From Planctomycetota bacterium (GTDB lineage: Bacteria; Planctomycetota; B15-G4), in the NCBI GenBank assembly GCA_038212275.1, contig JBBQUR010000016.1, positions 32,001 through 96,000 of the forward strand: 64,000 nucleotides of DNA. The letters run 5' to 3'. Position 1 is the stretch's first letter, and every line of letters starts with the position of its first letter. Position numbers and translations under genes: made by a program. This document shows, piece after piece, positions 2,557 to 46,987 of this stretch. The notes beneath the pieces were generated by a model. It saw only the letters and a list, made by a program, of their open reading frames with translations. It was not told the origin of the DNA and made no database searches.

Positions 2557-4437
2557 ATGAAACTCGACACCCGCAATCTGCTGGCGATCGGTGGCCTTGC
2601 CGCGACGGCGCTCGTGGTGGCTGCCTTCTCGCTCCCGACGAGCACGGCCGCGTTCGCCACGCTCGGCGGCAGCCTCGGCACCGGTCAGCGCGACTTCCGC
2701 GTGTTCAACAACTTCTCCGACTCGACCGCGAACAACAACGTCACGCCGCACGTGAACTTCCCGGGACAGACCGGCGCCGTGATGGCCATCTGGAAGGCCG
2801 AGTCCGAGTGGGCCAGCGAGCCCGTCGGCGGCAACGGACTCGGAGACGGCATCTCCGGCAACCCGATCCTGGGCAGCGGCAACGCGAACTTCGACACGAT
2901 CTTCCAGGGAACGGCGACGTCGGCGGGCAACAGCAACGCCAACATCCACTCGGAGCTGACGGGCAGCGACGGCGGAGTGCTCGCCTTCACGCTGTCGCCG
3001 ATCAGCGATGGCTGGACCATCAAGTACTACTCGACGTGGACCTGGCAGGACGGCCCCGGCTCCGTGAGCTCGGGCATCGACATCCAGGGCGTGGCCTGCC
3101 ACGAGATCGGCCACTCGCTCGGGCTTGACCACTCCAATGCGTCGGGCACGCCGACGATGACGGCTTTCATCAGCGGCACAGGCACGAGCCAGCGTTCGAT
3201 CGAGTCCGACGACATCGCCGGACTCCAGTCGATCTATGGTGTGAAGTCGGCCGGCAAGCCGCACATCTCGTCGATTTCCGGCACCAAGCAGATCGGCCAG
3301 CCGCTCACGATCACCGGCACCAACTTCGCCGCGACCGGCGGCGAGGTCTGGTTCACCAAGTTGAACAGCGACGGCGCTCCCGCAAAAGTGACGAACGTCT
3401 CGTCCACCGGCGGCGGCACGTCGATCACCGTCACGATTCCGAACGGCGTGCAGGACGGAGAGGTGATGGTGAAGAACAACACCGACACCGACTCCAGCCT
3501 CTCGAATGCCTTCCCGATCGACACGAACGCCGCGAGCGGCAATCCGCCCAACGTCTTCAGCATCAGCCCGGGCTTCGGCTTCGCGGGCGGTTTCTCCACA
3601 GTGGCGATCACGGGTGTCGGTTTCACGGGCACCACGAGCGTGAAGTTCAACGACGCGGATGCGCTGGATTTCACCGTGAACAGCGACACGCTGATCACCG
3701 CGACGGCTCCGGGCGGACCGCTGTTCGGCCTTGCCGACGTCACGGTCACCGATGGTGACGGCGCCGCCACGCTGGCTTCGGCCTACTTCTTTACCTTCGA
3801 CCCGCTGGCGTCGATCTCCTCGGTCACGCCGAACTTCGGTCCGACCGCGGGCGGCACGCAGGTCTCGATCACCGGCACCTCCGTGATCGGCGTCACGAGC
3901 GTCACCTTCGGCGGCGTGCCGGGCACGCAGCTCGACGTGGTCAGCTCCACCGAGCTCACCGTGTTCACGCCGGCTGGCGTCGCAGGTCCCGTGGACGTGG
4001 TCGCGATCGCATCCAACCCTGCGACGATCGTCGCCGGCTTCTCGTACATGGATGAAGGCCTGTTCACCGTCTTCGGGACGGGCGTGCCGGGCCTCTCGGC
4101 GACGGCGCCGCAGCTCAACGGTGCGGGCGACCTCACGCCGGGCAGCGGCACGGGCTTCATGCTGTTGACCAGTGGCGCGGCTCCTCTCGCGCCGGCCGCC
4201 CTGTTCGTCAGCCTCGTGCAGGGCAACGTGCCCTTCAAGGGCGGCACGATCTACACCTTCCCGATCCTGCTGGACATCAGCCTGATCACCAGCGCCTCCG
4301 GCACCATCAGCTTGCCCGCCCAGATTCCGGCGGGCACCCCGACGGCAACGAATTTCTTCCTGCAATGCTGGGTGCAGGATGCCGGCGCCGTGCACGGCAT
4401 CGCATCCACGAACGGCCTTCAGGTGACCACGCCTTGA
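2557..4437 (+). CDS. Secreted matrixin (M10/MMP-like) metalloprotease with IPT/TIG repeats and shared C-terminal module, copy 1
   Basis: Signal peptide; HEIGHSLGLDH zinc motif; Met-turn (PTM); DDIAGLQSIYG helix; three IPT/TIG-like repeats (e.g. SVTPNFGPTAGGTQVSITGT). Confidence 0.9.
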   Translation: MKLDTRNLLAIGGLAATALVVAAFSLPTSTAAFATLGGSLGTGQRDFRVFNNFSDSTANNNVTPHVNFPGQTGAVMAIWKAESEWASEPVGGNGLGDGISGNPILGSGNANFDTIFQGTATSAGNSNANIHSELTGSDGGVLAFTLSPISDGWTIKYYSTWTWQDGPGSVSSGIDIQGVACHEIGHSLGLDHSNASGTPTMTAFISGTGTSQRSIESDDIAGLQSIYGVKSAGKPHISSISGTKQIGQPLTITGTNFAATGGEVWFTKLNSDGAPAKVTNVSSTGGGTSITVTIPNGVQDGEVMVKNNTDTDSSLSNAFPIDTNAASGNPPNVFSISPGFGFAGGFSTVAITGVGFTGTTSVKFNDADALDFTVNSDTLITATAPGGPLFGLADVTVTDGDGAATLASAYFFTFDPLASISSVTPNFGPTAGGTQVSITGTSVIGVTSVTFGGVPGTQLDVVSSTELTVFTPAGVAGPVDVVAIASNPATIVAGFSYMDEGLFTVFGTGVPGLSATAPQLNGAGDLTPGSGTGFMLLTSGAAPLAPAALFVSLVQGNVPFKGGTIYTFPILLDISLITSASGTISLPAQIPAGTPTATNFFLQCWVQDAGAVHGIASTNGLQVTTP

Positions 4438-4558
4438 TCGGCCGACTGCGGAATTGCCGAACGGTTGGCGCGTTCGACAAGACCGTGCTCTCCCTCTCCC
4501 CCTCAGTTCCGCCAATCCCGACTTCTCTTCCTCAATTTCGTATCCACGGAGATCATCC

Positions 4559-5110
4559 ATGAAAATTCTCAAGGCCGCGGCCGTGCTGCTTGGCGTAGCG
4601 CTCGTCGCGATTCCCGCAGGTGCCGCCATCAAGGCGATGACCCTGGCGGAGGCGATGGAGATCAACTCCGACGTCCTGCACGGTCGCATCATGTCCAAGA
4701 CGACGGTGAAGACCGACAGGCCGCTCGAGGGCATGGTCTACACGCACATCACCGTGGAGGGCGAGTCGCTCACCACGGGCGAGAAGGTCACCAAGGAGCT
4801 CGTGTTCCTCGGCAGCCACGACACGAAGGACAACTACGGCACGAGCGAGATGCCCACGCAGCAGGACACGCGCGTCGGCGGCGATGCCCTCATCATGTAC
4901 TCGCATGACGAGTCCGGCGCCACGCCGGTGGATCGCGTCTCCGATTTCTCGGCGGTCTATCGCGTCGAGCTCGCCTTCGGCGAGCCCGTCGTCATCGGCA
5001 AGGGCGAGGGCTTCGCCTTCCCCGAGAACGTGAAGCTCGCCGAGGCCCGCACGCGGGTCCTCAAGGCTCACGCTGACATCATGGCTGCCAAGACCAAGGC
5101 CGGAAAGTAA
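4559..5110 (+). CDS. Small secreted protein (183 aa), matrixin partner copy 2
   Basis: GGAG RBS, ATG 4559, signal peptide MKILKAAAVLLGVALVAIPAGA; paralog of 1998..2549. Confidence 0.85.
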   Translation: MKILKAAAVLLGVALVAIPAGAAIKAMTLAEAMEINSDVLHGRIMSKTTVKTDRPLEGMVYTHITVEGESLTTGEKVTKELVFLGSHDTKDNYGTSEMPTQQDTRVGGDALIMYSHDESGATPVDRVSDFSAVYRVELAFGEPVVIGKGEGFAFPENVKLAEARTRVLKAHADIMAAKTKAGK

Positions 5111-5118
5111 AGGAACAC

Positions 5119-6993
5119 ATGAAGACCATCACACAGACTCTTCTCGCAGCTGGCAGCCTCGCTGCAGTGGCCGCAGTGCTTGGCGCGCTGTCGCTCCCCA
5201 CGAGTACGGCGGCTTTCACCGTCATCGGCGGCAGCCTCGGCACCGGCCAGCGCGACTTCCGCGTCTGGAACAATTTCACGGACACGCAGGCGAACAACAA
5301 CACGTCGCCTCACGTGAATTTCCCGGGCCAGACCGGCGCCGTCATGGCGATCTGGAAGGGCGCGGCCGAGTGGGCCAGCCAGCCTGTTGGCGGCACCGGC
5401 ACGGGTGACACGGGCGGCAGCAATCCCGTGATCGGAAGCGGCGGCGCCAACCTGGATCTCAACTTCCAGGGGCTCGCCTCGAGCGCCGGATCCACCAACC
5501 AGAACATCCACTCCGAGCTGTCAGGCAGCAGCGGTGGCGTCCTCGCGTTCACCGAGACGCCCATCAGCGACGGCTGGAGAATCCTCTACTACTCGTCGTG
5601 GACCTGGCAGGACGGTCCCGGCAGCGTGGGCTCGGGCATCGACCTGCAGGGCGTGGCCTGCCACGAGATCGGCCACTCCACGGGACTCGGCCACTCGAAC
5701 ACCGGGGGCGCGACGATGTTCGCATCCATCAGCGGCACGGGTGTCGGTCAGCGCTCGATCGAGGCGGACGACATCGCGGGCGTGCAGTCGATCTACGGTG
5801 TGAAGTCGGCCTCGAAGCCGACGATCACCTCGATTGCCGGCGACAAGAACATCGGCGCCAACCTGATCATCAACGGCACCAACTTCTCCGCGACCGGCGG
5901 CGAGGTCTGGTTCACCAGGACGGCCGCCGACGGCACTCCGGTGAAGGTCACGGGAGTGGCTTCCACGGGCGGCGGCACGCAGATCACGGTCACCATCCCG
6001 TCGGGGGTGATGGACGGCGAGGTCATGGTGAAGACGAGCGGGAGCGGCAACACCAGCCTCTCGAATGCCTTCCCGATCGATCTCGGCGCGCCGGCCGGCG
6101 ATCCGCCGAACGTGAGCTCGATCGTCCCGAACGTGGGTTCGATGGGCGGCTTCACGTCTGTCCAGATCCTCGGGACGGGCTTCACGGGCACGACGGCCGT
6201 GAAGTTCGACGGCGTGGATGCGATCTCGTTCACGGTAGACAGCAACGTCCAGATCTCGGCGGTCACGCCGCCTGGCACGCTGTTCGCCGCGGCGGACGTG
6301 CTCGTCGTCGATGGGGAGGGCAGCTCAACCCTTCCCACGGCGTTCATCTACACGTTCAACCCGCAGATTTCCGTCTCGACGGTGCTTCCGAACAGCGGTG
6401 CGCTCACGGGCGGCACGGAAGTCACGATCAGCGGGACCTCGGTGGTCGGCGCCAACACCGTCACGTTTGACGGCGTGCCCGGCATCAACGTGGAGGTCAT
6501 CAGTGCGACGAGCCTGACGGTCACGACCCCGGCGGGCCTCGCGGGTCCGGCGGACGTGGTCGTCAGCGGGAGCAGCATGTCGACGATCGTCGGCGGCTTC
6601 ACCTACGTCAACTTCGGAACCTTCACGGACGTCGGTCCGGGTTTCGGAAGCATCATCGGAGCACCCAGCATGACCGGCGCAGGCGATCTGACGCCCGGCA
6701 GCGGGACGGGCTTCACGCTGACCACGACGAACACCTTCCCGTTCTCGTTGGCGGCGACGTTCGTGAGCCTCAACCTGAGTGCCGTGCCCTTCAAGGGCGG
6801 CACGTTCTATCCGTTGCCGATCCTGCTCCAGATCGACCTCGTCACGGATTCGTCCGGCACGATCGTCCTGCCGGGGCAGATCCCGGTGGGCGTGCCGTCG
6901 GGCGCGAACGTGTACATGCAGACCCTGGTTTCGGACTTCCTCGCGCCCAAGGGCCTGAGTGGAAGCAATGCGCTGAGGCTCACGACGCCGTGA
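5119..6993 (+). CDS. Secreted matrixin metalloprotease with IPT/TIG repeats and shared C-terminal module, copy 2
   Basis: AAGGA RBS; HEIGHSTGLGH; ATM Met-turn; DDIAGVQSIYG; collinear with 2557..4437. Confidence 0.9.
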   Translation: MKTITQTLLAAGSLAAVAAVLGALSLPTSTAAFTVIGGSLGTGQRDFRVWNNFTDTQANNNTSPHVNFPGQTGAVMAIWKGAAEWASQPVGGTGTGDTGGSNPVIGSGGANLDLNFQGLASSAGSTNQNIHSELSGSSGGVLAFTETPISDGWRILYYSSWTWQDGPGSVGSGIDLQGVACHEIGHSTGLGHSNTGGATMFASISGTGVGQRSIEADDIAGVQSIYGVKSASKPTITSIAGDKNIGANLIINGTNFSATGGEVWFTRTAADGTPVKVTGVASTGGGTQITVTIPSGVMDGEVMVKTSGSGNTSLSNAFPIDLGAPAGDPPNVSSIVPNVGSMGGFTSVQILGTGFTGTTAVKFDGVDAISFTVDSNVQISAVTPPGTLFAAADVLVVDGEGSSTLPTAFIYTFNPQISVSTVLPNSGALTGGTEVTISGTSVVGANTVTFDGVPGINVEVISATSLTVTTPAGLAGPADVVVSGSSMSTIVGGFTYVNFGTFTDVGPGFGSIIGAPSMTGAGDLTPGSGTGFTLTTTNTFPFSLAATFVSLNLSAVPFKGGTFYPLPILLQIDLVTDSSGTIVLPGQIPVGVPSGANVYMQTLVSDFLAPKGLSGSNALRLTTP

Positions 6994-7047
6994 TGGCGTC
7001 GTGATCCGGGAGTCCCGCGCGCCCCGGGCGCGTCGGACTGCCAGTGG

Positions 7048-7085
7048 GCGAGGCCCGTCCTTCCTGAGGGAAGGGCGGGCCTCGC
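7048..7085 (+). terminator. Terminator-like hairpin after the matrixin cluster
   Basis: gcgaggcccgtccttcc-tgag-ggaagggcgggcctcgc: 17-bp stem with one G-U pair and a 4-nt loop; no U-tract. Confidence 0.6.
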
Positions 7086-7285
7086 TCCATGTCGGGGCTC
7101 GTCGCGGCACATGCACGGGGCTACGCACGGGACACGCACGTCGTGCGCCGGACATCGGCGCACGCAGCGCCCGGTGAAGTGCTTGCGCGCCCCTTGCTGC
7201 ACGCACGCAGCAGGCCTGCCGCCTTGCACGGGAAGTGCCAATCCCTATAGTGCCGGCTGCGTCCGGACCCCGCGCGGAGAACTCC

Positions 7286-7681
7286 GTGTTCCTGAGCTAC
7301 CACGCCGTTCTCGTGTTCCTGATCACGGGCATGGCCATGGTGTGTACGCCGATGATTCTCGGCGTGCTCTTCCGCCCGCGGAATCCCTACCCGGCGAAGA
7401 CCATGGCCTACGAATGCGCCGAGGATCCGGTGGGCGACGCCCAGATCCGCTTCGACATGCGCTTCTACTCGGCCGCGCTGATTTTCATCATTTTTGACGT
7501 GGAAATCGCCTTCATGTTCCCTTGGGCGCTTGTCTTCCAAGGCTTCCATGACCGCTGGCTGGCACTCGCGGAAGGGGTGGCGTTCATCGCGATCCTCTTC
7601 CTCGGCCTGGTCTACGTCTGGGTCAAGGGCGACGTGGACTGGGTCAAGACCTTCCGCCACCGTCGACGGGTGCAGGGCTGA
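7286..7681 (+). CDS. nuoA: NADH-quinone oxidoreductase subunit A
   Basis: KTMAYECAEDP, FYSAALIFIIFDVEIAFMFPW; GTG start after GGAGA; TATAGT at 7246. Confidence 0.93.
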   Translation: MFLSYHAVLVFLITGMAMVCTPMILGVLFRPRNPYPAKTMAYECAEDPVGDAQIRFDMRFYSAALIFIIFDVEIAFMFPWALVFQGFHDRWLALAEGVAFIAILFLGLVYVWVKGDVDWVKTFRHRRRVQG

Positions 7682-7684
7682 GCC

Positions 7685-8209
7685 ATGGGCATTCTGAACA
7701 ACGCGCTTCCTGACATCGCACCGGTCCGCGCCGTGGATGCGGCCGTCGGCTGGGGACGCGGCTCGTCGCTGTGGCCGATGACCTTCGGCATCGCGTGCTG
7801 CGCCATCGAGATGATGGCCGTGTACGCGGCCACCTTCGACCTCGATCGCTTCGGAGCCGGCGTGCCGCGCGCAACACCGCGCCAGAGCGACCTCATCATC
7901 GTGCCGGGCACCGTGAACGCCAAGATGGCCGTGCGCGTGCGCCGCCTCTGGGACCAGATGGCCGAGCCGCGCTACGTGATCGCGATGGGAGCGTGCGTGT
8001 GCGGCGGCGGACCTTATGTGAAGTGGGGCTACAACACGGTGAAGGGCGTCCACAAGATCATTCCCGTCGACATCTTCGTGCCCGGCTGCCCGCCGCGCCC
8101 CGAAGCACTGATGGATGGCATCCTCAAACTGCGCGAGAACGTCACGCGCGAGGCGGTCTTCGCGCGCCGTGAAGCCACGGCGCGGATCCTGGACGCCCGC
8201 GGCGGCTGA
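7685..8209 (+). CDS. nuoB: NADH-quinone oxidoreductase subunit B
   Basis: [28 protein letters not shown] (cluster N2 ligands). Confidence 0.97.
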
Positions 8210-8216
8210 TCGCGCA

Positions 8217-8921
8217 ATGAACGAACAACAGCTGCACGCCAAACTGCTGGCCTCCGGCCTGCCCGGGATAGGGGAGCTGGACACGTCCGCGAGGGATCCG
8301 TTCGTCCGCGTGGACGCCGGCTCGATCGTCGCCGTGTTGACCTTCCTGCGCGACGACCACGATTGCCGCATGGAGATGCTGCACAACCTGACCGCCGTGG
8401 AGCGGCCCGACGCGATCGAGCTCGTCTACCACGTGTGTTCGCTGGCGCGTCACCACGCGCTCACCGTGAAACTGAGCTGCCCGCGCCCGGATGGTGGCAA
8501 TCACGACACGTGGATCCCCGAGGTGCCGTCCGTGGCCGGCGTGTACAGCGCCGCCAACTGGCACGAGCGCGAGCAATGGGATCTCCTGGGCGTGCGCTTC
8601 GCGGGCCATCCCGACCACAGGCGCATCCTGCTGCCCGAGGAATGGATCGGCCACCCGCTCCGCAAGGACTACGTCTACCCGACGTGGCACGACGGCATCC
8701 CGCTCGAGCTCGATGCGATCCCGCTGTACGAGCCGGGTGGCGGGCAGGCTGCGGCCGAGGCTGCGGCGGCGTCGGCTGCCGGTGCGGCGGGTGCCGCCGC
8801 CAAAGCTCCGCGCAAGGCGGGTGAGCCGCTGTTCCAGCCGCCGGCGCCGCTGAGCACGCGTCCGCTCGCGCCGGGCGGCAAGACGACGGACACGCCCGCG
8901 TCCGAGCTGGGGTCGCACTGA
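8217..8921 (+). CDS. nuoC: NADH-quinone oxidoreductase subunit C with Ala/Pro-rich tail
   Basis: ANWHEREQWDLLGVRFAGHPDHRRILLPEEWIGHPLRKDY. Confidence 0.95.
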   Translation: MNEQQLHAKLLASGLPGIGELDTSARDPFVRVDAGSIVAVLTFLRDDHDCRMEMLHNLTAVERPDAIELVYHVCSLARHHALTVKLSCPRPDGGNHDTWIPEVPSVAGVYSAANWHEREQWDLLGVRFAGHPDHRRILLPEEWIGHPLRKDYVYPTWHDGIPLELDAIPLYEPGGGQAAAEAAAASAAGAAGAAAKAPRKAGEPLFQPPAPLSTRPLAPGGKTTDTPASELGSH

Positions 8922-10090
8922 TGGAAGCGCTCGAACTCTACGCGGTGGATGACCGCGCCGACGTTTACACCGAGGAGCTCAAGCTCAACCTCGGCCCGCA
9001 GCATCCGTCCACGCACGGCGTGCTGCGCGTGGAGTTGCGCCTGGACGGCGAGATCATCACCGCCGCGCGCTGCGACATCGGCTACCTGCACCGCTGCGCC
9101 GAGAAGATCGGCGAAAACGTCAGCTACCTGCAGTTCACGCCGTACACCGACCGCATGGACTACCTCTCGTCCATGAACAACAACCTGGCGTGGAGCCTCA
9201 CGGTCGAGAAGCTGCTTGGCGTGGAGGCGCCGCCGCGCGCGCAGTGGTTGCGCGTGATCATGGCCGAGCTCAACCGCATCGCGAGCCACCTCATCGCCTT
9301 CGGCACCTACGGCATCGACATGGGCGCGGCGACGCCCTTCTTCTACGCGTTCCGCGAGCGCGAAAGCATCATGGCGCTGCTCGAGCGGCCCTCCGGCGCG
9401 CGCATGCTCTACAACTACATCCGCCCGGGCGGCGTGGCGCACGACATCGACGAACGCTGGCTGCCCGACGTCCTCGCCTTCTGCGACGAGTTCGAGAAGC
9501 GCTGGGCCGAATACAACACGCTGCTCACGACGAACAAGATCTTCATCGAGCGCACGAAGAACATCGGCGTGATCCCGAGGCAGATGGCGCTCGATTACGG
9601 CCTCACCGGCCCGGTGCTGCGAGGCTCCGGCGTGAAGTGGGACCTGCGACGCGACGTCCCCTACCTGAAGCCCTACGACGAGATCGAGTTCGACATCCCG
9701 GTCGGTGAGGGCACGCACGGCACGCTGGGCGACTGCTGGGACCGCTACTGGGTGCGCATGCTCGAGATGATGGAGTCCATCCGCATCATCCGGCAGGCGG
9801 CCGTGCGCGTGCCGACGGGCGACTTCGTCGAGAAGGCGATGCTCAAGATGTACAAGTCGCCGCTCAAGCCGGCGGCAGGCGAGGCCTACATGCGCTGCGA
9901 GAACCCGCGCGGCGAGCTGGGCTTCTACGTCGTGTCGGCCGGCGGCGCCTCGCCGATCCGCTGCCGCGCGCGCGGCCCGAGCTTCTGCAACCTGTCGGTG
10001 CTCGACGCGCTGCTGCCCGGCTGCATGATCGCCGACGGCGTGGCGATCATCGGCTCGCTGGACATCGTGCTCGGCGAGGTGGACCGCTAG
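8921..10090 (+). CDS. nuoD: NADH-quinone oxidoreductase subunit D
   Basis: NLGPQHPSTHGVLR, GYLHR, DRMDY, C-terminal SLDIVLGEVDR; no NiFe-binding CxxC motifs. Confidence 0.97.
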   Translation: MEALELYAVDDRADVYTEELKLNLGPQHPSTHGVLRVELRLDGEIITAARCDIGYLHRCAEKIGENVSYLQFTPYTDRMDYLSSMNNNLAWSLTVEKLLGVEAPPRAQWLRVIMAELNRIASHLIAFGTYGIDMGAATPFFYAFRERESIMALLERPSGARMLYNYIRPGGVAHDIDERWLPDVLAFCDEFEKRWAEYNTLLTTNKIFIERTKNIGVIPRQMALDYGLTGPVLRGSGVKWDLRRDVPYLKPYDEIEFDIPVGEGTHGTLGDCWDRYWVRMLEMMESIRIIRQAAVRVPTGDFVEKAMLKMYKSPLKPAAGEAYMRCENPRGELGFYVVSAGGASPIRCRARGPSFCNLSVLDALLPGCMIADGVAIIGSLDIVLGEVDR

Positions 10091-10093
10091 GCG

Positions 10094-11158
10094 ATGGAGA
10101 CGCTCATCCGCTTCTTCAGCGACCTCTTCCACCTCAGCCCCGACGGCGTCCTGCCGCTCACGCTGGCGTACTCGGTGTGCATCGGCAGCCTGCTGGGCTT
10201 CATCACGGTCTACGCGATGTTCGCGATCTGGATGGAGCGCAAGGTGGCCGCGCACATCCAGATCCGCTACGGACCGATGGAAGTGGGCGGCTGGCACGGC
10301 TGGGCGCAGTCCATCGCGGACGCGGTCAAGCTGCTGTTCAAGGAAGACCTGATTCCGGACGGCGCCAACAAATTCATGTTCTGGATCGCGCCGGCGGTCG
10401 TGTTCTGCGGCGTGTTCTCCGGCTTCATCGCGATTCCGTTCGCGCTCGGCGTCCAGATCGTCGACATCCACCTCGGCCTCTTCTTCATCGTGTGCATCGC
10501 CTCGGTGGAGGTGGTGGGCGTGATCATGGCCGGCTGGGCGAGCAACAGTAAGTACTCGCTCTTCGGGGCCGTGCGCGAGGCGGCGCAGGTCGTGTCCTAC
10601 GAGGTGCCGGCGGCGGTCGCGCTGCTCGTGCCGATCCTCATCGTGGGCAGCTTCCGCCTCGGCGACTTCAACGCGTGGCAGGAAGAGCACGGCTGGCTCG
10701 TGTTCCACAACCCGTTCGTCATCGTCGCGGCGCTGATCTACTTCATCGCGTCGCTGGCGGGCTGCAAGCGTGCGCCCTTCGACCTGCCCGAGGCGGAGTC
10801 GGAACTCGTGTCGGGCTTCCACACCGAGTATTCGGGCATGCGCTTCTCCTTCTTCTTCCTGGAGGAATACGCGTCCATGTTCGTGGCCGCGGCGCTCGTC
10901 GCGACGCTGTTCCTCGGCGGATGGACGCTGCCCTTCGTGAACGTGTCGGCGTGGCCGGTCCCGTTCGGCATCGTGATCCTGCTCGCGAAGATCTTCGCCG
11001 TGATCTTCCTGCAGATGCTGCTGCGCTGGACCCTGCCGCGCCTGCGCATCGACCAGGTGATGGCCATGGGCTACAAGTACCTGCTGCCGTGGGGCATGCT
11101 GTGTGTCGTCGGCACCGCGCTCTTCGAGACCATGGGGTGGAGGTGGCTGCCTCTCTGA
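10094..11158 (+). CDS. nuoH: NADH-quinone oxidoreductase subunit H
   Basis: ERKVAAHIQIRYGP, ADAVKLLFKED, RAPFDLPEAESELVSGFHTEYSG. Confidence 0.97.
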   Translation: METLIRFFSDLFHLSPDGVLPLTLAYSVCIGSLLGFITVYAMFAIWMERKVAAHIQIRYGPMEVGGWHGWAQSIADAVKLLFKEDLIPDGANKFMFWIAPAVVFCGVFSGFIAIPFALGVQIVDIHLGLFFIVCIASVEVVGVIMAGWASNSKYSLFGAVREAAQVVSYEVPAAVALLVPILIVGSFRLGDFNAWQEEHGWLVFHNPFVIVAALIYFIASLAGCKRAPFDLPEAESELVSGFHTEYSGMRFSFFFLEEYASMFVAAALVATLFLGGWTLPFVNVSAWPVPFGIVILLAKIFAVIFLQMLLRWTLPRLRIDQVMAMGYKYLLPWGMLCVVGTALFETMGWRWLPL

Positions 11159-11173
11159 GGGCGCCAGACACGC

Positions 11174-11902
11174 ATGAGCGGCATCCGCGAATACTTCGGC
11201 AACATCAGCGACGCGCTGACCAGCACGGTGAAGGGCATGGGCATCACCATGCAGCACTTCGTGAAGGAGCCGCCGATCACGGTGCAGTTCCCGCACGAGC
11301 GGCTTCCGCTGCCGCCCAGCTACAAGGGCATCCACATCCTCGAGCAGGACAAGTGCATCGACTGCAAGCTCTGCGCGAAGGCCTGCCCGGTGGACTGCAT
11401 CGAGATCGAGGCCGTCCACCACGGCCGGGTGCTCGAGTGGCAGAAGTTCACGATCGACTACAAGAAGTGCATCTTCTGCGAATTCTGCATCCCGCCCTGC
11501 CCCAAGAACTGCATCCACATGACCTCGGAGTTCGAGGTCGCGACCGACGATCCCTCGACGATGATCGAGGACCTGCTCACGTGGACGGGCCTGCGACTCG
11601 AGGACCGCCGCGCGATCGACGCGTCCGAGGCCAAGCGCGCGGGCAAGACCGTGGTCGAGCCGAAGAACGGCGGCCCGGCGCCCGGCAATCCGGCGCCGAG
11701 CGGCACCGAGTTCACTTCGAAGCACGCGGCCGGAAGCTGGGGCGCGCCGGGCGGCGCTCCCCCCAGGCCTGACGCGGCGCCGGGTGCTGCGGGCGCCCCG
11801 AAGCCCGCCGCCGCAACGGCCGCGAGCGGTGGCGCCGACAGCCTTGCCGCGAAGACCGCCGCCATTCGAGCCAAGCTCGCCGCTGCCAAGGGTGCGGGCT
11901 GA
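11174..11902 (+). CDS. nuoI: NADH-quinone oxidoreductase subunit I with long C-terminal extension
   Basis: Two 4Fe-4S motifs, CIDCKLCAKACP and CIFCEFCIPPCP. Confidence 0.95.
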   Translation: MSGIREYFGNISDALTSTVKGMGITMQHFVKEPPITVQFPHERLPLPPSYKGIHILEQDKCIDCKLCAKACPVDCIEIEAVHHGRVLEWQKFTIDYKKCIFCEFCIPPCPKNCIHMTSEFEVATDDPSTMIEDLLTWTGLRLEDRRAIDASEAKRAGKTVVEPKNGGPAPGNPAPSGTEFTSKHAAGSWGAPGGAPPRPDAAPGAAGAPKPAAATAASGGADSLAAKTAAIRAKLAAAKGAG

Positions 11903-12411
11903 TGCTCGACTTCATGTTCTTCGTCTTCGCCGGGCTGGCGGTGGTGGGCGGGCTGCTCGTCGCCTTCCACCGCAACATCGTGCACAGCGCCTTTGCGCTC
12001 GTCGCCGCGTTGTTCGGCGTGGCCGGGCTCTACTGGACGCTGGGCGCGGACTTCCTCGGCGCCACGCAGGTGCTGCTCTACGTCGGCGGCGTCACGGTGC
12101 TGCTGCTGTTCGCGGTCATGCTGACCACGCGCGACAGCACGCGCGTGTCGATCGGGCGCAACATCCTGGTCGCGCCGATCGTGGGCCTGCTCTTCCTCTA
12201 CGTCTGGCAGGCATGCCAGGGCGTCGTTCAGATCGTGAGCGGCACCGGCACGGTGGTGACGGAGGACGTCGCGCCGACGACCGGCACCATCGGCACGATG
12301 TTCCTGCAGCGCGACCAGTACCTGCTGCCCTTCGAGGCGATCTCGGTGCTGCTGCTCATCGTGCTCGTCGGCGCCGTGACACTCGCCCGCCGCGGACAGG
12401 AGGCTCCATGA
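11902..12411 (+). CDS. nuoJ: NADH-quinone oxidoreductase subunit J
   Basis: QVLLYVGGVTVLLLFAVML, YLLPFEAISVLLL. Confidence 0.95.
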   Translation: MLDFMFFVFAGLAVVGGLLVAFHRNIVHSAFALVAALFGVAGLYWTLGADFLGATQVLLYVGGVTVLLLFAVMLTTRDSTRVSIGRNILVAPIVGLLFLYVWQACQGVVQIVSGTGTVVTEDVAPTTGTIGTMFLQRDQYLLPFEAISVLLLIVLVGAVTLARRGQEAP

Positions 12412-12875
12412 CGCTTCTGCTCACGCTGATGGCTCAGGCCTCGGAGGCCGGCGGTCATGCGGCCGCCGCCGGAATGCAGGCGGTCGCGGGCGCTGCCGCG
12501 GCCGGTGCACACGGCGCCGCTGCCGACGGCGCTTCGGCGGGCGCGCAGGCTGTCGTCATCACGGGCCACGCCGGCCAGCTCACCAGCTACATCGCGGTCT
12601 CGTGCGTCCTCTTCGCGCTCGGCATCGCCACGATCCTCACGCGGCGCAACGTGCTGTACGTGCTCATGGGCGTCGAGCTGATCCTGAATGCGGCCAACCT
12701 GAACTTCGTCGCCTTCGCGCGCTTCGGCGGCTACGGCATGGACGGCCAGATGGTGGCGCTCTTCGTGGTGATCCTCGCGGCGGCGGAGGCGGCCATCGCG
12801 CTCGCCATCGTGCTGCGCATCTTCCACGACTTCGGCAGCATCGACATCACGCGCACCGACAGCTTGCGGGACTGA
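12408..12875 (+). CDS. nuoK: NADH-quinone oxidoreductase subunit K with Ala/Gly-rich N-terminal extension
   Basis: RRNVLYVLMGVELILNAANL, AAAEAAIALAI; ATGA overlap with nuoJ. Confidence 0.93.
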   Translation: MTLLLTLMAQASEAGGHAAAAGMQAVAGAAAAGAHGAAADGASAGAQAVVITGHAGQLTSYIAVSCVLFALGIATILTRRNVLYVLMGVELILNAANLNFVAFARFGGYGMDGQMVALFVVILAAAEAAIALAIVLRIFHDFGSIDITRTDSLRD

Positions 12876-12885
12876 TCGGAGAACG

Positions 12886-14988
12886 ATGCAGAACCTCACG
12901 CTCCTCTGGATGTGCCTCGGGATCTTCCTGATCCCGTTCGCCTGCTCCGTCACCCTGATCTTCTTCGGGCGCAAGCTGCCGCGCGGCGGCGACTGGCTGG
13001 CGACGGCCGGGATCGTGAGCTGCGCAGTCATCGCGCTGACGCTGTTCTTCAAGTACATCGTCGGCGTGCACGAAGCGGGCTGGCACTGGGCCTCGGCCGA
13101 GCACGGACTGTCGTGGAACTGGATCACGCTGCTCGACTTCAAGCTGTCGGTCGGTGTCTGGCTCGACAACATGACCATCATCATGCTGACGATGGTCACG
13201 GTGGTGGGAAGCTGCATCTTCTTCTTCAGCCAGGGCTACATGCACGGCGACCGCGACTACCCGCGGTTCTTCGCCTACCTGAGCTACTTCTGCTTCGCGA
13301 TGCTCGGGCTGATCGTCTCGGACAACCTGCTCTTCCTGTTCATCTTCTGGGAGCTCGTCGGTGTCGGGTCCTACCTGCTCATCGGCTTCTTCTACGACCA
13401 GGTCGAGCCGCCGAAGGCCAGCCTCAAGGCCTTCATGGTCAACCGCATCGGCGACGTGCTCTTCCTGCTGGGCATCGTCCTGGCGTGGCAGCTCTTCGGC
13501 ACGCTGAACTACCACGAGCTCTTCGAGCGCCTCGCCGCCGGCCAGTTCGCGGACCAGGCCACGCGAGCCTTCCCCTCGCTGTCCAACCACGCGATCCTCA
13601 CGCTCTCCGGCGTGCTCATCTTCTGCGGCGCGGTCAGCAAGTCCGCGCAGGTGCCGCTGCACACGTGGCTGCCTGACGCGATGGCCGGCCCGACGCCGGT
13701 GTCCGCGCTCATCCACGCGGCGACGATGGTCGCGGCCGGCGTGTTCATGGTCGGGCGCATGTATCCGTACTTCACGCCCGAGGCGCTGGGCGTCATCGCG
13801 ATCGTCGGCTCGATCACCGCGCTTCTGGGCGCGACGATGGGCCTCGTCGCGTGGGACATCAAGAAGGTGCTCGCCTTCTCCACCATGAGCCAGCTCGGCT
13901 ACATGATGCTGGCCCTCGGTGTGGGCGGCTTCGTGGCGGGCCTCTTCCACCTCATCACGCACGCCTTCTTCAAGGCCTGCCTGTTCCTCGGCAGCGGCTC
14001 GGTGATCCACGCCGTGCACACGCAGGACATGCGCGAGATGGGCGGCCTGAAGAAGAAGCTGCCCGTCACGTACTGGACCTTCCTGATCGCCACGCTGGCG
14101 CTGGCCGGCGTGCCGTGCTTCGCGGGGTACTACAGCAAGGACCAGATCGTCGCCAACGCGCTTGCCTGGGGTGTTGAAGATCCGCAGGTGCTGCGCTTCA
14201 TTCCGGTGATCTTCGCCGCCGTCGGCGCATTCATGACCACCTTCTACATGCTGCGGCTGGTCTTCCTGACCTTCCACGGCGCGCCGCGCGACCAGCACAA
14301 GTATGAACACGCGCACGAGTCGCCGCCGGTCATGGCCCTGCCGCTGGTGCTGCTCGCGAGCTTCGCCCTGCTGGGCGGCGGAACGATTCACCCGCTGCCG
14401 CACAGCGAGCACCTCTGGTTCAACACGCTCGTCGTGAAGCCCGAGTCCGCCGCCGAGAAGGGCCTGCACCTGTACGACGACGAGCAGCAGGTCGAGATGG
14501 AGGCGCACCGCGAACATGCGCTGCACCAGTCCCACCTCCCGGCCGTCGGCATCTCGCTGCTTGCCATCCTGGCCGGCTGGCTGCTGGCCCGTGCGATGTA
14601 TCTCAAGCGCAGCGCCGATCCGGCCGCCATGGCAGCGCGCTTCGGCGTGCTCTACGAGGCGGCCGTCCACCGGTACTGGTTCGACGAGATGTATGCGCAG
14701 GGCATCGTCGCCAACCTGCAACGCCTCAACCGTGCGCTGGCGACCTTCGACCGACGCGTCGTGGACGGCGTCGTGAACGCGACGGGCCTGATCGCGCGCG
14801 CCATCGCCTTCGTCTCCGGCCTCTTCGACAAGTACGTCATCGACGGTGCGGTGAACTTCTGGCGCTGGTTCGTGCGCACGCTGTCGGGCGTGTTCCGCCT
14901 GGCGCAGACCGGCAACGCCCGCGATTACCTGACCTGGACCCTGCTGTCCGTGCTGATTCTTGCCATCTACCTGGCGCAAGGTCACTGA
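12886..14988 (+). CDS. nuoL: NADH-quinone oxidoreductase subunit L
   Basis: WELVGVGSYLLIGF, KSAQVPLHTWLPDAMAGPTPVSALIHAATMV, HAFFKA. Confidence 0.97.
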   Translation: MQNLTLLWMCLGIFLIPFACSVTLIFFGRKLPRGGDWLATAGIVSCAVIALTLFFKYIVGVHEAGWHWASAEHGLSWNWITLLDFKLSVGVWLDNMTIIMLTMVTVVGSCIFFFSQGYMHGDRDYPRFFAYLSYFCFAMLGLIVSDNLLFLFIFWELVGVGSYLLIGFFYDQVEPPKASLKAFMVNRIGDVLFLLGIVLAWQLFGTLNYHELFERLAAGQFADQATRAFPSLSNHAILTLSGVLIFCGAVSKSAQVPLHTWLPDAMAGPTPVSALIHAATMVAAGVFMVGRMYPYFTPEALGVIAIVGSITALLGATMGLVAWDIKKVLAFSTMSQLGYMMLALGVGGFVAGLFHLITHAFFKACLFLGSGSVIHAVHTQDMREMGGLKKKLPVTYWTFLIATLALAGVPCFAGYYSKDQIVANALAWGVEDPQVLRFIPVIFAAVGAFMTTFYMLRLVFLTFHGAPRDQHKYEHAHESPPVMALPLVLLASFALLGGGTIHPLPHSEHLWFNTLVVKPESAAEKGLHLYDDEQQVEMEAHREHALHQSHLPAVGISLLAILAGWLLARAMYLKRSADPAAMAARFGVLYEAAVHRYWFDEMYAQGIVANLQRLNRALATFDRRVVDGVVNATGLIARAIAFVSGLFDKYVIDGAVNFWRWFVRTLSGVFRLAQTGNARDYLTWTLLSVLILAIYLAQGH

Positions 14989-14996
14989 GGAATCCC

Positions 14997-16508: not shown

Positions 16509-16521
16509 CCCCCAGATCCCG

Positions 16522-19692: not shown

Positions 19693-22683
19693 TTACTGGA
19701 TCGTGATGAGCAGGCCGTTGGTGGCGGCCTTGCCCTTGGCGCCTGCCGGGTCCAGCAGCCAGTGCTGCAGGGTGATCTGCATCCCGATGATGCCCGGCGT
19801 GTTCGGCAGCGCGCCCATGACCACCGTCGTGCCGCCGGGACTCGTGATGAGGCCCGCGGTCGCAAGGACATTGCCCACCAGGAAGGTGCCGCCCAGCGCG
19901 GGAATCGCCACCTGATCCGTGCCGATGAACAGCGTGCCCGGCGCGGCGGGCTTCGCGCCGCTCGTCATGAGTGTCACGGAGCCGCCCGGCGTGGCCGAGC
20001 CGCTGCCCGCAAGCGCGGGAGCGATGCCGCCCTGCCCCGGCGTGCCCGCGCCGTACGGGATGAACTGCCCGCCGCTGACCGGCCCGAGCGACAGAACCTG
20101 GAAGTCGTCGATGTTCCAGCCGCCGTACTCGACACCGCCGTCCGAGATGAGCTCGAACTTCACGGACACCGACGGGTTGTTGTCGGCGATGGCGGAGATG
20201 TCGAAGTCCTGCGCGATCCAGCTCGTGTCGAGCAGGTCCGTGGCCGACGGGTTGGTGAAGACGATGGTGTTGTTCACGTACACCCGCGCCAGATCGAAGA
20301 TGCCCTTCTCCACGTTGAGCCAGCGCCGGAAGCGCAGGCGCGTGCCGGTCTTGCCGCTCAGGTTGAACGTCGGCGAGGTGAGGTTGTTGTTCACGTTGGG
20401 CTGGTAGATGCCATTGAAGCCCGCGAGGCCGAGGTCATTGCCCCACACGCTCGATCCGGAGTACGCCGTCGCCGGGTCGGTGGAGGCTCCGTTCGGGCTG
20501 CCGTGATTCCAGTCGTCCTGCGTCGCGATCTGCTGGTGGACCCAGCTTTCGTCGCTCACCGGCTCGAAGTCGTAGAACTGGTGCACGGTGACCGTGCCGA
20601 CGTCGTAGCTGAGGAAGTCCGTCGGCGCCTTCGCCGGGAAGCTGTTCCCGTTGCTGGCGAGGTCCGTGGCGCGCACGTAGTAGCCCACGACCGCCGGCGA
20701 GACCTGGCCGGGAATCTGGCCGCTCCACGTGTTGCCCGAGACGAAACTCATCGGCACGGACGAGAAGTTCGCGCCGCCGTTGGTGGTGTAGAAGAGCTTC
20801 ACCGCATTCAGCGCGGCGTTCGCTTCGACGACGGTCGCGTTCACCGTCACCGCGCCCTCGCTGTTCACCGGGCTGTTCACCGGCGTGACGCTCACCGTGA
20901 ACAGCGGCAGCGTGAAGCCCGGGAAGCCCTGTTCCTTGAAGGCGGCGTCGATGGTGGTGTAGTTCGGCGTGCCGTTGTTCAGGTTGCCGTCGTTGTCGTC
21001 GAGCATCAGCCAGTGATCCTCGATGATCGACTTGATCTGCGAGTCGTTGAAGGTCTGGAACCACGCCAGCAGATACTGGTTGGCAAGCGCGCTGCCGGCC
21101 GGCGCGCCGAGCGAGGTCTTCAGGTTGCGACGCACCTTCCAGATGGCGCCCATGAGCGGTTCGCCGTCCGCGTGCACCTCGCCGTAGCAGCCGGGATTGC
21201 TGTCGCCGCAGAAGGCGCTGGTGTTGTCGCCCGTGCGGATGTTCGTGCCGAGGCCGAAGAAGTCCTGCGCGACGACGGGATTGTCGGCGATGTACATCGA
21301 CCAGCAGTCCGCGCCGCCTTCGCCGAAGCCGTCGCCGCCGTTGCCCGAGCCGTACAGATCGTTGGCCCAGTGGCCCTCTTCATGCCACACCACCGTCGAG
21401 TACGAAGTGTTGGGGCAGCCGCCGCCCGCGAGGAAGAAGTTGAGCGAGCCTCCATCGTAGAAGGCGTTGCAGGTGTCGGCCTCGTTCACGTTGGAGAGCA
21501 GCTGGAAGTCGAAGGACGTGTCACCCGGATCGAGGCTGCGGACCCAGTCGCGGAAATGTTCGACGCTGATGTGCGCGTTCACCTCGGCCGTCGTCTGCTC
21601 GGACAGGCTCTGGTTCAGCATGAAGTTCTGACTCACGCCCGGGGCCAGGGTCAGCGCCACCGAGGACTCGCCGCCCGCGATGTTGTCGACGCGCGAGTAC
21701 ATGCCGTTGAAGCTCGCCGTCACGAGCTTGGACGTGTTCGTGCCGGCAAAGGTGAAGTTGCCGTTCGCATCGCTCAGCTGGTTGGGCTCGCCGGCTGCGA
21801 CGAGCCGCACGTCCTTGAGATTCTGGAGCACCTCGGGGGCGCCGCCGTCGGGCAGCAGGCCGGCCTGGGCATTGCCCTGCACCTTGCCGACCAGGTCGCC
21901 GTGCACCAGTGACCAGCTGTCGAGCACCGCGGGCGTGCCGCGCGCCGAGACCACGTACTGGCGGATCACCGGCAGTTCGCCGGTCCTCGGGTTGTAGCTG
22001 GCGGCCAGCTTGAACTCGTACGCCGGCATCGCGCGCACCGCGTTCTTGCGGGCGTCGGGCTTGCCGGGGAAGAGCACGTAGCCCGCGGGCTCCACGCTGA
22101 TGGCCGCGACACCCGTGTCGGCGGCGAAGGCGGCCTGCGCGGCCTGCGCCGCCGCGCCCAGGGTCACCGTCGGATCGAGCTTGACCTGCGCGACGTGCGG
22201 CAGGCCCTGGTTGTCCAGGCCGAGCAACCGGCCGTCTGCGGAGAAGAGCAGGTTCACGTAGCCGTGGTGCGTGGGCACGCCGTCAACGACCTGGTGAAAC
22301 TTGACGACGATCTTGTCCGTCCCGCCCGCGCGCGCGAGCGGAAGCTGCTTCACGCGATCGAGCACCAGCGTGTCGGCGTCGTAGCCGAGGGCTGCTGCCA
22401 TCTCGTTCACGAAGCTGCGGCTGGCGACAACGAGCGCCTCGGGCGAGAGCGCGTTGGCCGGCACCAGCGGCAGGTTGCCGCCGAAGATCAGTCGCGGCGC
22501 ATTGGTCTCGTGGGTCCAGCGCACCTGCCACTCGGGACCGTTGTCCGCCTGGAAGCGGCGCATCGTGCTGCCCGGATCGAAACCGGGAAACGTGCTGGCG
22601 TCGGCGGGATCAGCCACCTGCGCGAGCGTTGCGGCGCCCAGGAAGGCAGAGGCGAAGAGTGCGGACAGAATGTGTCTGATCAC
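19693..22683 (-). CDS. Secreted M4/M36-like zinc metallopeptidase with propeptide and shared C-terminal module
   Basis: GTG after GGAG; signal peptide; FTP-like propeptide (VKFHQVVDGVP); CNAFYDG, HEEGH, downstream GEGGAD, EVHADG; jelly-roll-like domain ending GWNIDDF. Confidence 0.85.
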   Translation of the reverse strand: MIRHILSALFASAFLGAATLAQVADPADASTFPGFDPGSTMRRFQADNGPEWQVRWTHETNAPRLIFGGNLPLVPANALSPEALVVASRSFVNEMAAALGYDADTLVLDRVKQLPLARAGGTDKIVVKFHQVVDGVPTHHGYVNLLFSADGRLLGLDNQGLPHVAQVKLDPTVTLGAAAQAAQAAFAADTGVAAISVEPAGYVLFPGKPDARKNAVRAMPAYEFKLAASYNPRTGELPVIRQYVVSARGTPAVLDSWSLVHGDLVGKVQGNAQAGLLPDGGAPEVLQNLKDVRLVAAGEPNQLSDANGNFTFAGTNTSKLVTASFNGMYSRVDNIAGGESSVALTLAPGVSQNFMLNQSLSEQTTAEVNAHISVEHFRDWVRSLDPGDTSFDFQLLSNVNEADTCNAFYDGGSLNFFLAGGGCPNTSYSTVVWHEEGHWANDLYGSGNGGDGFGEGGADCWSMYIADNPVVAQDFFGLGTNIRTGDNTSAFCGDSNPGCYGEVHADGEPLMGAIWKVRRNLKTSLGAPAGSALANQYLLAWFQTFNDSQIKSIIEDHWLMLDDNDGNLNNGTPNYTTIDAAFKEQGFPGFTLPLFTVSVTPVNSPVNSEGAVTVNATVVEANAALNAVKLFYTTNGGANFSSVPMSFVSGNTWSGQIPGQVSPAVVGYYVRATDLASNGNSFPAKAPTDFLSYDVGTVTVHQFYDFEPVSDESWVHQQIATQDDWNHGSPNGASTDPATAYSGSSVWGNDLGLAGFNGIYQPNVNNNLTSPTFNLSGKTGTRLRFRRWLNVEKGIFDLARVYVNNTIVFTNPSATDLLDTSWIAQDFDISAIADNNPSVSVKFELISDGGVEYGGWNIDDFQVLSLGPVSGGQFIPYGAGTPGQGGIAPALAGSGSATPGGSVTLMTSGAKPAAPGTLFIGTDQVAIPALGGTFLVGNVLATAGLITSPGGTTVVMGALPNTPGIIGMQITLQHWLLDPAGAKGKAATNGLLITIQ

Positions 22684-22895
22684 GAACGGGCTCCAGAGTG
22701 GGAGAGACGGCGGAGTGGGGACACCGGGATGGGTCTGGGGCGGTCGCTGGTGGCCAGGCGGCAGCCGCATCGGCGTTCGGGCCGAGGTCGCGGCACTCTA
22801 ATCGCGCGTCGTGGATCCGGCTACCCTCGGTGTCACCGTTGCCTCAGCTTTTTTGAGAAGCCGGGGTCGGCAGCGGGCGCCTTCGCGTCGCGCGC

Positions 22896-43328: not shown

Positions 43329-43362
43329 CGCGGCATCCGCTCCGCCCGACCCGGAGACCCGC

Positions 43363-43634
43363 ATGATCAGGCGACTCGGCATCGCGCTCACGACGCTGGG
43401 CGGCGTTCGTCGCCTGTGGCCTGCCGCTCCGGCCTGTCCCGTACAGCGACGTGAGCCTGCCTGGCAATCCATCCGGCGTCACGTGGTTGCTGCTGGCGGC
43501 GTTCGTCGCCGGCGTGGCGGATCGCATGCTGCGGAACTCCGCGCGCACGTCGATCCTCGCGGTCGCCGCAGGCTTCGGGCGTGAAGACGCTCGGTCAGCC
43601 CTCGGTGATGCTGCTTCTCGACAGCTCGTTCTGA
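43363..43634 (+). pseudogene. Possible frameshifted membrane-protein remnant
   Basis: GGAG + ATG 43363 (MIRRLGIALTTL); hydrophobic text continues only after frame changes near 43397 and 43578. Confidence 0.3.
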
Positions 43635-43653
43635 CCCGCAGCGCCGGCGCGCG

Positions 43654-45758: not shown

Positions 45759-46048
45759 GCATTCCTCCTGAAGCCCGATGGCGTGGGGGCAGCCCGAAGC
45801 GCGTGCCATCGTAGCGCCGCGGCCCCTCGCGAGAGCCGGCGACGGCGGAAGGCGCGATGACCGCGGCCTCTTCCACGCGCTCCCGCACCGGCACCGCCCG
45901 CATTCGCCCGCAGTCACCAGCACCGCCGGCACTGCCCGAAGTCACCGGCAGTCACCAGCACCGCCCTCAGTTGCTGCGCAGCAATCGGAGTGTCATCAGA
46001 CGGCTCGCCCCGGACGGGATACGCTGCCCGCCCCCTAGGAGAGTCCCC

Positions 46049-46987
46049 ATGAGAGCAGCGATCGTCTTCGTGCTGATGGCCGCCAGCGCGGCTGCCCAAT
46101 CGGGCCTGATCCAGAACGCTGCCCAGCTGGAGGCGACGCTCGGTGACAAGCTGCAGCTCGAGGACTTCGAGGGCCTCAGCCTCGCGGGCGGCACCTCGAC
46201 GCCCGCGCCCAATCCGCTGAATGCCGGAACCAAGCCGTCATGGCATCTGCTCTCCGGCGTGAGCTACGACTCGACTCACAACCTCGGCATGTACACCGGC
46301 CAGCTTCTGGGTGACGACAGCAACATCCTCGCCGGCGTCGGCAGCAGCACGAACGACGTCACGATCACGTTCGACGCGCCGCAGCTCGCCGTCGGCTTCT
46401 ACCTCGTGGACATCACGGGCAATCTTGCCTACCACGAGACGATCACCTTCCTGCGCGGCGCGACGGTGGTCGGCACGACCAGCCTCGTGCTGCCCAGCGC
46501 GAGCGAGCACTTCATCGGCTGGCAGGACGCGTCCGGCATCACCTCCGCACGCGTGACCTCCGATGCCTTCGCGATGGTCGACAACGTGATGTGGGGTGTC
46601 GCCGTGGCTCCTGTGGGTGTCTGGTCGAGCCTCGGCTCGGGCCTCGCCGGAGTCAGCGGCGTGCCGGGCCTGACCGGCTCGGGGACGCTCGCCGCGGGGT
46701 CCTCGGGCAGCCTCTCGCTGATAGCAGCGAAGCCGTCGGCGCCGGTGTTGCTGTTCGTGTCGGCATCGAGCAGCCCCGTGCCGTTCAAGGGCGGAACGCT
46801 GGTGGCCTTCCCGTACCTCGTGACGGTGCCGCTGAGCACCAGCGGCAGCGGGGCGCTGCTGCTGCCGTTCACGTGGCCGTCCGGGCTGCCCGCCGCGACG
46901 ACGGTCGTCTTCCAGTACGCCGTCCAGGACGCGGCGGCCGTGAAGGGCGTGGCGCTGAGCAATGCGCTGCAGGCCCTCACGCCGTAG
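46049..46987 (+). CDS. Secreted protein with beta-rich N-domain and shared C-terminal module
   Basis: AGGAG RBS; signal peptide MRAAIVFVLMAASAAA; PFKGGT...QYAVQD...SNAL tail. Confidence 0.85.
   Translation: MRAAIVFVLMAASAAAQSGLIQNAAQLEATLGDKLQLEDFEGLSLAGGTSTPAPNPLNAGTKPSWHLLSGVSYDSTHNLGMYTGQLLGDDSNILAGVGSSTNDVTITFDAPQLAVGFYLVDITGNLAYHETITFLRGATVVGTTSLVLPSASEHFIGWQDASGITSARVTSDAFAMVDNVMWGVAVAPVGVWSSLGSGLAGVSGVPGLTGSGTLAAGSSGSLSLIAAKPSAPVLLFVSASSSPVPFKGGTLVAFPYLVTVPLSTSGSGALLLPFTWPSGLPAATTVVFQYAVQDAAAVKGVALSNALQALTP

Follow-up and report, generated by a model that had tools for sequence, protein, structure and literature searches.

A C-terminal beta-sandwich domain as a probable surface sorting or anchoring tag in a clade of Planctomycetota

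Four proteins with signal peptides, encoded in a 64,000-nucleotide stretch of the Planctomycetota bacterium assembly GCA_038212275.1 (the window, on contig C16), end in the same domain of ~125 residues, which we call the C-terminal domain (CTD). The domain recurs at the ends of proteins throughout this genome and across a clade of the phylum, and relatives of three independent cargo families carry recognisable, known anchor signals at the junction where the CTD would otherwise begin. On this evidence, the CTD is probably a surface sorting or anchoring tag.

A shared C-terminal domain

Two of the four proteins are paralogues. Protein A (2557..4437, plus strand) consists of a signal peptide, a matrixin (M10) catalytic domain, three IPT/TIG domains and the CTD, as delimited by its open reading frame (ORF) and Pfam (Peptidase_M10 at 2.7e-13; TIG at 2.8e-22 in three stretches); protein B (5119..6993, plus), delimited by ORF and Pfam, likewise has a matrixin (M10) domain, three IPT/TIG domains and the CTD. 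The CTD of A (4042..4434, plus) ends in ...STNGLQVTTP, followed by TGA, and was placed with alignments A1 and A2 (A2 being the profile and alignment of the 114 genome tails described below) and an AlphaFold2 model. Tail alignments and a hidden Markov model (HMM) place the CTD of B at 6598..6990 (plus). Protein C (19693..22770, minus; likely GTG start at 22683) has a signal peptide, an HExxH metallopeptidase, a MAM-like domain and a CTD (19696..20091, minus; same basis) with the variant PALGGT and the ending ...TNGLLITIQ. Protein D (46049..46987, plus) has a signal peptide, a beta-jelly-roll passenger resembling a carbohydrate-binding module (CBM; residues ~25-187) and a CTD at 46595..46984 (plus), for which the tails of homologues were compared as well.

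The last ~130 residues of A to D align over 145 columns, 26 of them invariant, and the tails of B, C and D are 53, 38 and 42% identical to that of A. A sequence-only reading of the window had proposed this shared module, and its motif string holds: C does have PALGGT, and four to five residues follow (S/T)N(G/A)L before the stop. It had also described a tail lacking a transmembrane (TM) helix and a signal peptide in all four proteins; the tails indeed have no such helix, and signal-peptide-like N-termini are plain by eye in A-D. Recent copying of the tail does not account for the likeness of A and B, because the CTD is their least conserved part (72% identity in the catalytic part, 59% in TIG and 52% in the CTD). 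Protein A has more than 100 orthologues of ~620-630 residues, and one matrixin-CTD pair is found on a contig of 5.29 Mb, which points to a closed genome. The same reading went too far in calling protein C M4/M36-like; an HExxH motif is present (HEEGH), but Pfam lists only a sub-threshold InhA-like_MAM match (3.6e-5, 23.8 bits vs a cut-off of 26.9) and no other family, and a PDB sequence search with C returned no match. Protein D has neither a Pfam nor an NCBIfam family.

To count the domain, we scanned the genome (4.65 Mb in 40 contigs, 70% G+C, 91% complete), taken as its 38,109 stop-to-stop ORFs with 60 or more residues, with an HMM built from the four tails. This returned 114 ORFs with a significant CTD, one copy each; the 110 ORFs beyond the original four reach E-values down to 5.9e-38, far exceeding chance likeness. 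The CTD ends within 5 residues of the stop in 108 of these, as the sequence-only reading would have it, 6-15 residues away in three and farther in three. The final residue is proline in 81/114, and 'SN' stands exactly nine residues from the end in 78/114. In A2, one glutamine is invariant (Q 100%), one aspartate is nearly so (D 95%), and several Gly, Pro and Asp positions are near-invariant. Using A2 on crude gene calls based on G+C content at third codon positions (GC3; ~3,241 genes covering 90% of the DNA), we obtained 120 CTD genes, ~3.7% of the total.

The domain is single-copy and terminal in ~96% of cases, and internal copies are infrequent, with only 5/120 lying away from the C-terminus. 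In L076, the CTD directly follows the signal peptide of a protein with a metallo-beta-lactamase fold; in L028, it is internal and followed by a further domain of ~165 residues; L143 and L144, encoded near each other on contig C4, are Kelch/TIG/GSDH proteins of 1,297 and 1,741 residues with N-terminal CTDs; the fifth copy is partial. We also observed a subtype (L054, L070, L072, L080, L092 and L093 among others) that ends in ...TQGLxLEIG rather than ...SN(A/G)LxxxTP, and several of its carriers have a common N-terminal ...AQGGGF(H/N)AGE... passenger.

Outside this genome, a search with a single tail found just two named loci, both in metagenome-assembled genomes (MAGs) of Planctomycetota; related loci and homologues of the CTD proteins bear the same label. 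Searching 1.84 billion cluster representatives (50% identity clusters) with A2 gave 15,011 matches at E<=1e-3, 7,252 at E<=1e-10 and 1,746 at E<=1e-30. Among the best 150 of the 15,011, the domain ends within three residues of the protein end in 147, and 130 of these 147 end in proline. Of 301 evenly sampled Planctomycetota genomes, 59 have the CTD (source genome included). Its presence is nearly all-or-none by family, with 7/7, 6/6, 2/2, 7/7 and 5/5 genomes positive in some families and 0/15, 0/15, 0/10 and 0/10 in others. Two CTD-bearing homologues are labelled outside the phylum, P0037 ('Myxococcales bacterium' MAG) and P0236 ('Pseudohongiellaceae bacterium' MAG); these labels may reflect mis-binning or a real spread beyond Planctomycetota.

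AlphaFold2 with the A2 alignment predicts an all-beta domain of ~11 strands with high confidence (predicted local distance difference test, pLDDT, 96.1; predicted template modelling score, pTM, 0.88), and in this model the CTD is a generic FN3/macroglobulin-like beta-sandwich. In none of the 114 ORFs does the tail carry a Pfam or NCBIfam family (thresholds of E<=0.1 for the window proteins, and of 1e-4 for Pfam and 1e-6 for NCBIfam for the 114 genome copies), and none of the Ig-like, CBM or surface-layer homology (SLH) families of Pfam has its best stretch there. A PDB sequence search with the CTD gave no match (best E 0.26), and Foldseek with the model returned nothing at E<=1e-3. The tail has therefore no match in Pfam, NCBIfam or PDB. 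The nearest ESM Atlas clusters are Planctomycetota fragments with no name and no common Pfam family.

The composition of the domain is unusual: charged residues (D+E+K+R) make up 7.0% of the CTD, compared with 15.6% of the passengers and 22.2% of the remaining proteome, and arginine is at 0.8% vs 9.2%. Two more specific ideas about the fold were rejected. For a Lys-Asn isopeptide cross-link, the candidate residues K59 and N117 show no covariation in 276 sequences (215/31/23/7, Fisher p 0.15), and Foldseek matches to isopeptide- or ester-bond adhesin domains have E-values of 1.5e-2 or worse. For a lipid-binding cup like that of MD-2 or the GM2 activator, Foldseek gives E 5e-3 to 3e-2 with TM-scores of 0.3-0.4, and such proteins are not among the 50 best matches of either VIA-align run. 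Separately, M10-TIG proteases in other families of CTD-positive genomes (L163-L166 and L168, forming alignment A3, and L149-L151) end in different tails of ~110-120 residues with no database match. Comparing A3 with A2 by hhalign gives a probability of 53% (E 1.4e-4, 52 columns), a weak likeness to the C-terminal half of the CTD that is suggestive at most; the CTD superfamily may be wider than the HMM detects.

Passengers and their alternative tails

Homologues of the passengers bear on what the CTD does. For the protein D passenger we compared 17 homologues (38-100% identity), of which six end in a CTD, six in a PEP-CTERM-type tail, four in a GC-type dockerin and one in another Cys-rich tail. 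The PEP-CTERM-type tails consist of ...VPEPS, a hydrophobic helix and Arg/Lys, and three of the six reach the TIGR02595 cut-off; three of the four dockerin tails reach that of NF041540. All of these tails start within ~10 residues past the conserved ...DNVxWG end of the passenger.

A second family gives a similar picture. Four CTD proteins have DUF642 passengers, which correspond to the NCBIfam family choice-of-anchor C. The DUF642 part of L069 has matches in 6/301 genomes, and we read nine ORFs from the five other genomes. Seven of the nine come from CTD-negative, exosortase-positive genomes and have PEP-CTERM ends (six reach the cut-off, and one was assigned by eye). Of the remainder, one has a GC-type dockerin end and the other, from a CTD-positive genome, a different long tail.

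The third family is that of the M10-TIG proteases. At E<=1e-30, strong orthologues of A and B are confined to CTD-positive genomes (28/59, vs 0/242 of the CTD-negative ones). The tails of weaker homologues were read at 11 loci, all from CTD-negative genomes. Five have dockerin-like repeats at their end, three of them with Pfam Dockerin_1 matches (one above the cut-off) and two by eye. Three have a glycine run, a cysteine, a hydrophobic (TM) helix and an arginine tail; one of these scores 19.4 bits for MYXO-CTERM (cut-off 20), JDVT-CTERM scores are 20.4 and 17.4 (cut-off 27), and the third was assigned by eye. The last three have no recognisable tag. Taken together, the tails of these homologues indicate that the CTD is evolutionarily interchangeable with PEP-CTERM, dockerin and MYXO-CTERM-like tails.

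The census points in the same direction, as NCBIfam choice-of-anchor families C, J, L or Q match 8/114 CTD ORFs, seven of them above the cut-off (C in L060, L062 and L069, with L006 below the cut-off; L in L041; J in L059; Q in L096 and L107). The name 'choice-of-anchor' denotes surface proteins with alternative C-terminal anchors, namely LPXTG, PEP-CTERM or T9SS (bioRxiv 10.1101/2023.03.06.531300). The simplest reading is that the CTD would be a further anchor choice. The sequence-only reading had taken the module for an export tag or an envelope-attachment domain, and both the swapping of tags and the choice-of-anchor cargo lend that idea support.

The passengers are, by their predicted domains, of diverse extracytoplasmic types. 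FG-GAP/VCBS repeats (Pfam) occur in 30/114 CTD ORFs. Six are peptidases (three M10, protein C, one reprolysin-like and one subtilase), and other cargo includes phytase-like, phosphoesterase, sulfatase, DUF642, Laminin_B, Kelch, WD40, GSDH, beta-helix, DUF7948/SBBP and NHL proteins; 45/114 have no Pfam family. By eye, signal-peptide-like N-termini are also present in most of the other CTD ORFs.

Two individual carriers deserve mention. L101 (G000:C25:40935-43475, minus) is an MtrC/MtrF-like multihaem cytochrome with a Big_9 domain and the CTD at its end. The Shewanella MtrC is held by a lipid anchor; the signal peptide of L101 has no lipobox cysteine, and its CTD may be a stand-in for an MtrC-type lipid anchor. 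L087 (G000:C20:72769-75138, plus) is a polytopic GT-C (PMT_2) glycosyltransferase with the CTD attached to its periplasmic end through a Gly-Ala linker of ~40 residues, a fusion that is kept in all six homologues found.

The genes around the CTD genes are distinctive in one respect. Within three genes of the 120 CTD genes, Ser/Thr kinases (17/35 paralogues) and extracytoplasmic function (ECF) sigma factors (8/15 and 3/6) are enriched, with examples at L129-L134, L137 and L138. This suggests that many CTD proteins are under local control by kinases or ECF sigma factors. In the window, a small exported protein is encoded upstream of each matrixin gene (1998-2549 and 4556-5110, both plus). The two are 183 and 184 residues long and 53% identical, and neither has a Pfam family. 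The pair of small protein and matrixin-TIG-CTD protein is, to judge from these likenesses, a tandem duplicate, and the small protein could be a candidate inhibitor or chaperone of the adjoining matrixin.

Elsewhere in the window, ORFs at 7235-18066 (plus) resemble NADH dehydrogenase (nuo) subunits and a 969-residue ORF at 23338-26247 (minus) resembles topoisomerase I, both judged by eye. Housekeeping ORFs such as these sit between the four CTD genes of the window, which are scattered and form no island.

Sorting or anchoring, and the search for machinery

What is established here comprises the CTD family and its class of fold, the strictness of its terminal position, the range of its cargo, its distribution by clade and the presence of other anchors at the same junction on homologous passengers. 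What these tails do for their carriers must be reasoned from them. We propose that, in a large clade of Planctomycetota, the CTD would be the main C-terminal 'anchor choice', marking extracytoplasmic proteins for the envelope or surface. After cleavage of the signal peptide, the folded, near-uncharged domain would dock non-covalently to a receptor on the outer membrane or surface, either protein or glycan. This docking would resemble that of dockerins rather than being mediated by lipids or sortases; it would keep the passenger on the cell surface and perhaps also pass it on to an exit route through the outer membrane.

We put forward this docking mechanism tentatively, with rather less confidence than the sorting or anchoring role itself. 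It is favoured over an export signal because true N-terminal and internal copies exist (L076, L028, L143 and L144), because one copy is tethered to an enzyme of the inner membrane, for which export is not possible, and because dockerins make up two of the three folded-domain devices that replace the CTD. A more ambitious version, which we hold to be possible though doubtful, is that the CTD works as an address label for a still undiscovered sorting pathway at the outer membrane. This pathway would have a receptor or translocon of its own, unrelated to T9SS (the type IX secretion system), sortases and exosortases, and ~100 or more substrates per genome across a large and mostly uncultured clade.

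As for partners, the sequence-only reading had proposed to look for a translocon or sortase-like enzyme that co-occurs with the module. Four leads were followed in the 301 Planctomycetota genomes, and none tracked the domain. In the source genome, neither PorV (NF033710) nor PorU (NF033707) was found, nor was an exosortase (PF09721); searches for SprA (TIGR04189, PF14349) were also silent in the control genomes and hence give no verdict on SprA. The genome has eight matches to secretin domains (L176-L183), and secretins are present in 298/301 genomes of the phylum at ~5.4 matches per genome.

Several observations weigh against a sorting or anchoring tag, or at least against our account of it. 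No CTD receptor or machinery was found, and four candidate leads failed. The GT-C-CTD fusion might have been a core machine, but its enzyme part occurs in only 3/301 genomes and in 0/7 of the same family, as befits an accessory. The matrixin-TIG-CTD protein might have been a processing protease comparable to PorU, but its strong orthologues are missing from 31/59 CTD-positive genomes, making it cargo of a clade. Exosortase is found in 25/59 CTD-positive and 108/242 CTD-negative genomes, and is neither complementary to the CTD nor correlated with it. Secretin copy number is not discriminating either (a mean of 6.5 in CTD-positive vs 5.2 in CTD-negative genomes, both summed by hand with at most 11 scored per genome). 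The enrichment among neighbouring genes is limited to Ser/Thr kinases and ECF sigma factors, which speaks of regulation and not of machinery. As to co-occurrence with signal peptides, 93/114 ORFs and 95/120 genes score by a heuristic that also scores 1,444/3,121 other genes (46%), so this is weak evidence and we do not rely on the counts. The localisation of CTD proteins is deduced from cargo type and analogy only, several tags were assigned by eye or from scores short of the curated cut-off, and the generic fold tells nothing of function. Finally, the strict terminal position and conserved final proline suit an export signal of the T9SS kind at least equally well.

In that case a dedicated translocon of the outer membrane, unrelated to SprA and possibly one of the many secretins, would recognise the CTD in the periplasm. 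The CTD would be required for passage across the outer membrane and would then be cleaved or serve for covalent attachment. The fixed distance to a free C-terminus and the final proline speak for this explanation. On the other hand, searches of the genome found neither PorV nor PorU, the CTD has no sequence match to the Por_Secre_tail models, the N-terminal and internal copies and the GT-C fusion are not exportable as such, and secretin numbers do not follow the CTD (6.5 vs 5.2). We therefore consider it unlikely. Docking and export may also be combined in one domain, as they are in T9SS.

It is less likely still that the CTD is a lectin-like, CBM-like or matrix-binding module that adheres to an external substrate (polysaccharide, mineral or other cells) and not to the cell's own envelope. 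CBMs vary in position and occur in tandem, whereas the CTD is single-copy and terminal in ~96% of cases. Its cargo, ranging from a multihaem cytochrome to proteases and a membrane glycosyltransferase, has no common substrate; protein D and the DUF642 proteins already have a CBM-like passenger, and their homologues swap the CTD for anchors, not for CBMs. The generic fold and the lack of a partner would also suit a passive structural element that helps folding, caps the protein against proteases or acts as a spacer, was spread by shuffling of 3' ends and plays no role in sorting. That seems highly improbable, given that specific polar residues (Q 100%, D 95%) and the precise C-terminal end are conserved across 15,011 clusters, that charge is strongly depleted and that bona fide anchors systematically replace the domain in homologues. 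A surface sorting or anchoring tag remains the reading that we prefer.

Comparison with known sorting and anchoring systems

Among the papers listed by full-text literature searches, none describes the CTD, and its carriers are annotated in the source databases as hypothetical, 'IPT/TIG domain-containing' or 'matrixin family metalloprotease'. New here are the genome-wide census, the evidence for tag swapping with choice-of-anchor cargo, the charge depletion and the negative tests of four machinery leads. If our reading is right, ~3-4% of the genes across an entire planctomycete clade encode an address label that has no name in any database, on a set of proteins that includes proteases, phosphatases, lectin-like proteins and a surface cytochrome. 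With a CTD HMM, sequence data alone would then suffice to delimit the surface proteome of these uncultured bacteria, and the HMM would improve the annotation of proteins now called 'hypothetical' or 'IPT/TIG domain-containing'. It would also point to a novel receptor or route of export, in a phylum where the biology of the envelope remains a matter of debate.

One close known parallel is the T9SS type A CTD of Bacteroidota (Por_Secre_tail, PF18962/TIGR04183). Both are single folded beta-sandwiches that form the very C-terminal end of many unrelated proteins exported through Sec, with ~100 or more cargoes per genome that are rich in proteases, hydrolases and adhesin-like repeats. The planctomycete CTD differs in being larger (~125 residues, ~11 strands) and in belonging to another phylum, as well as in its occasional N-terminal or internal copies and its fusion to an inner-membrane enzyme; the models Por_Secre_tail, TIGR04183 and TIGR04131 are not listed for the four window proteins or the 114 genome copies. 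In fold, the nearest known kin listed are macroglobulin (MG), FN3 and Ig-like beta-sandwiches (A2ML1 7q5z, C3, TEP1 2pn5 and CD109 8s3o).

Dockerins (type I, PF00404; GC-type, NF041540) are likewise folded, non-membrane C-terminal modules, and they stand at the same junction in homologues of D, of the DUF642 proteins and of the M10-TIG proteases. They are short, duplicated, calcium-binding helical repeats, whereas the CTD is a predicted all-beta sandwich of unrelated sequence for which no cohesin-like receptor was identified; neither PF00404 nor NF041540 matches any CTD protein. PEP-CTERM, MYXO-CTERM and JDVT-CTERM tails resemble the CTD in being alternative C-terminal tags on homologous passengers and in sharing choice-of-anchor cargo with it, a passenger match followed by a C-terminal tail being present in 8/114 CTD proteins. 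These tails have ~25-35 residues, comprise a motif, a TM helix and a basic end, and are processed by membrane sortases. The CTD, in contrast, has no TM helix, TIGR02595 has no match on CTD proteins and the source genome has no exosortase match, although both systems are found together in 25/59 CTD-positive genomes.

Compared with all of these, the CTD is a new family that appears to act like the known C-terminal sorting and anchoring devices, and the interchange of CTD, PEP-CTERM and dockerin on homologous passengers offers a concrete, testable equivalence between them.

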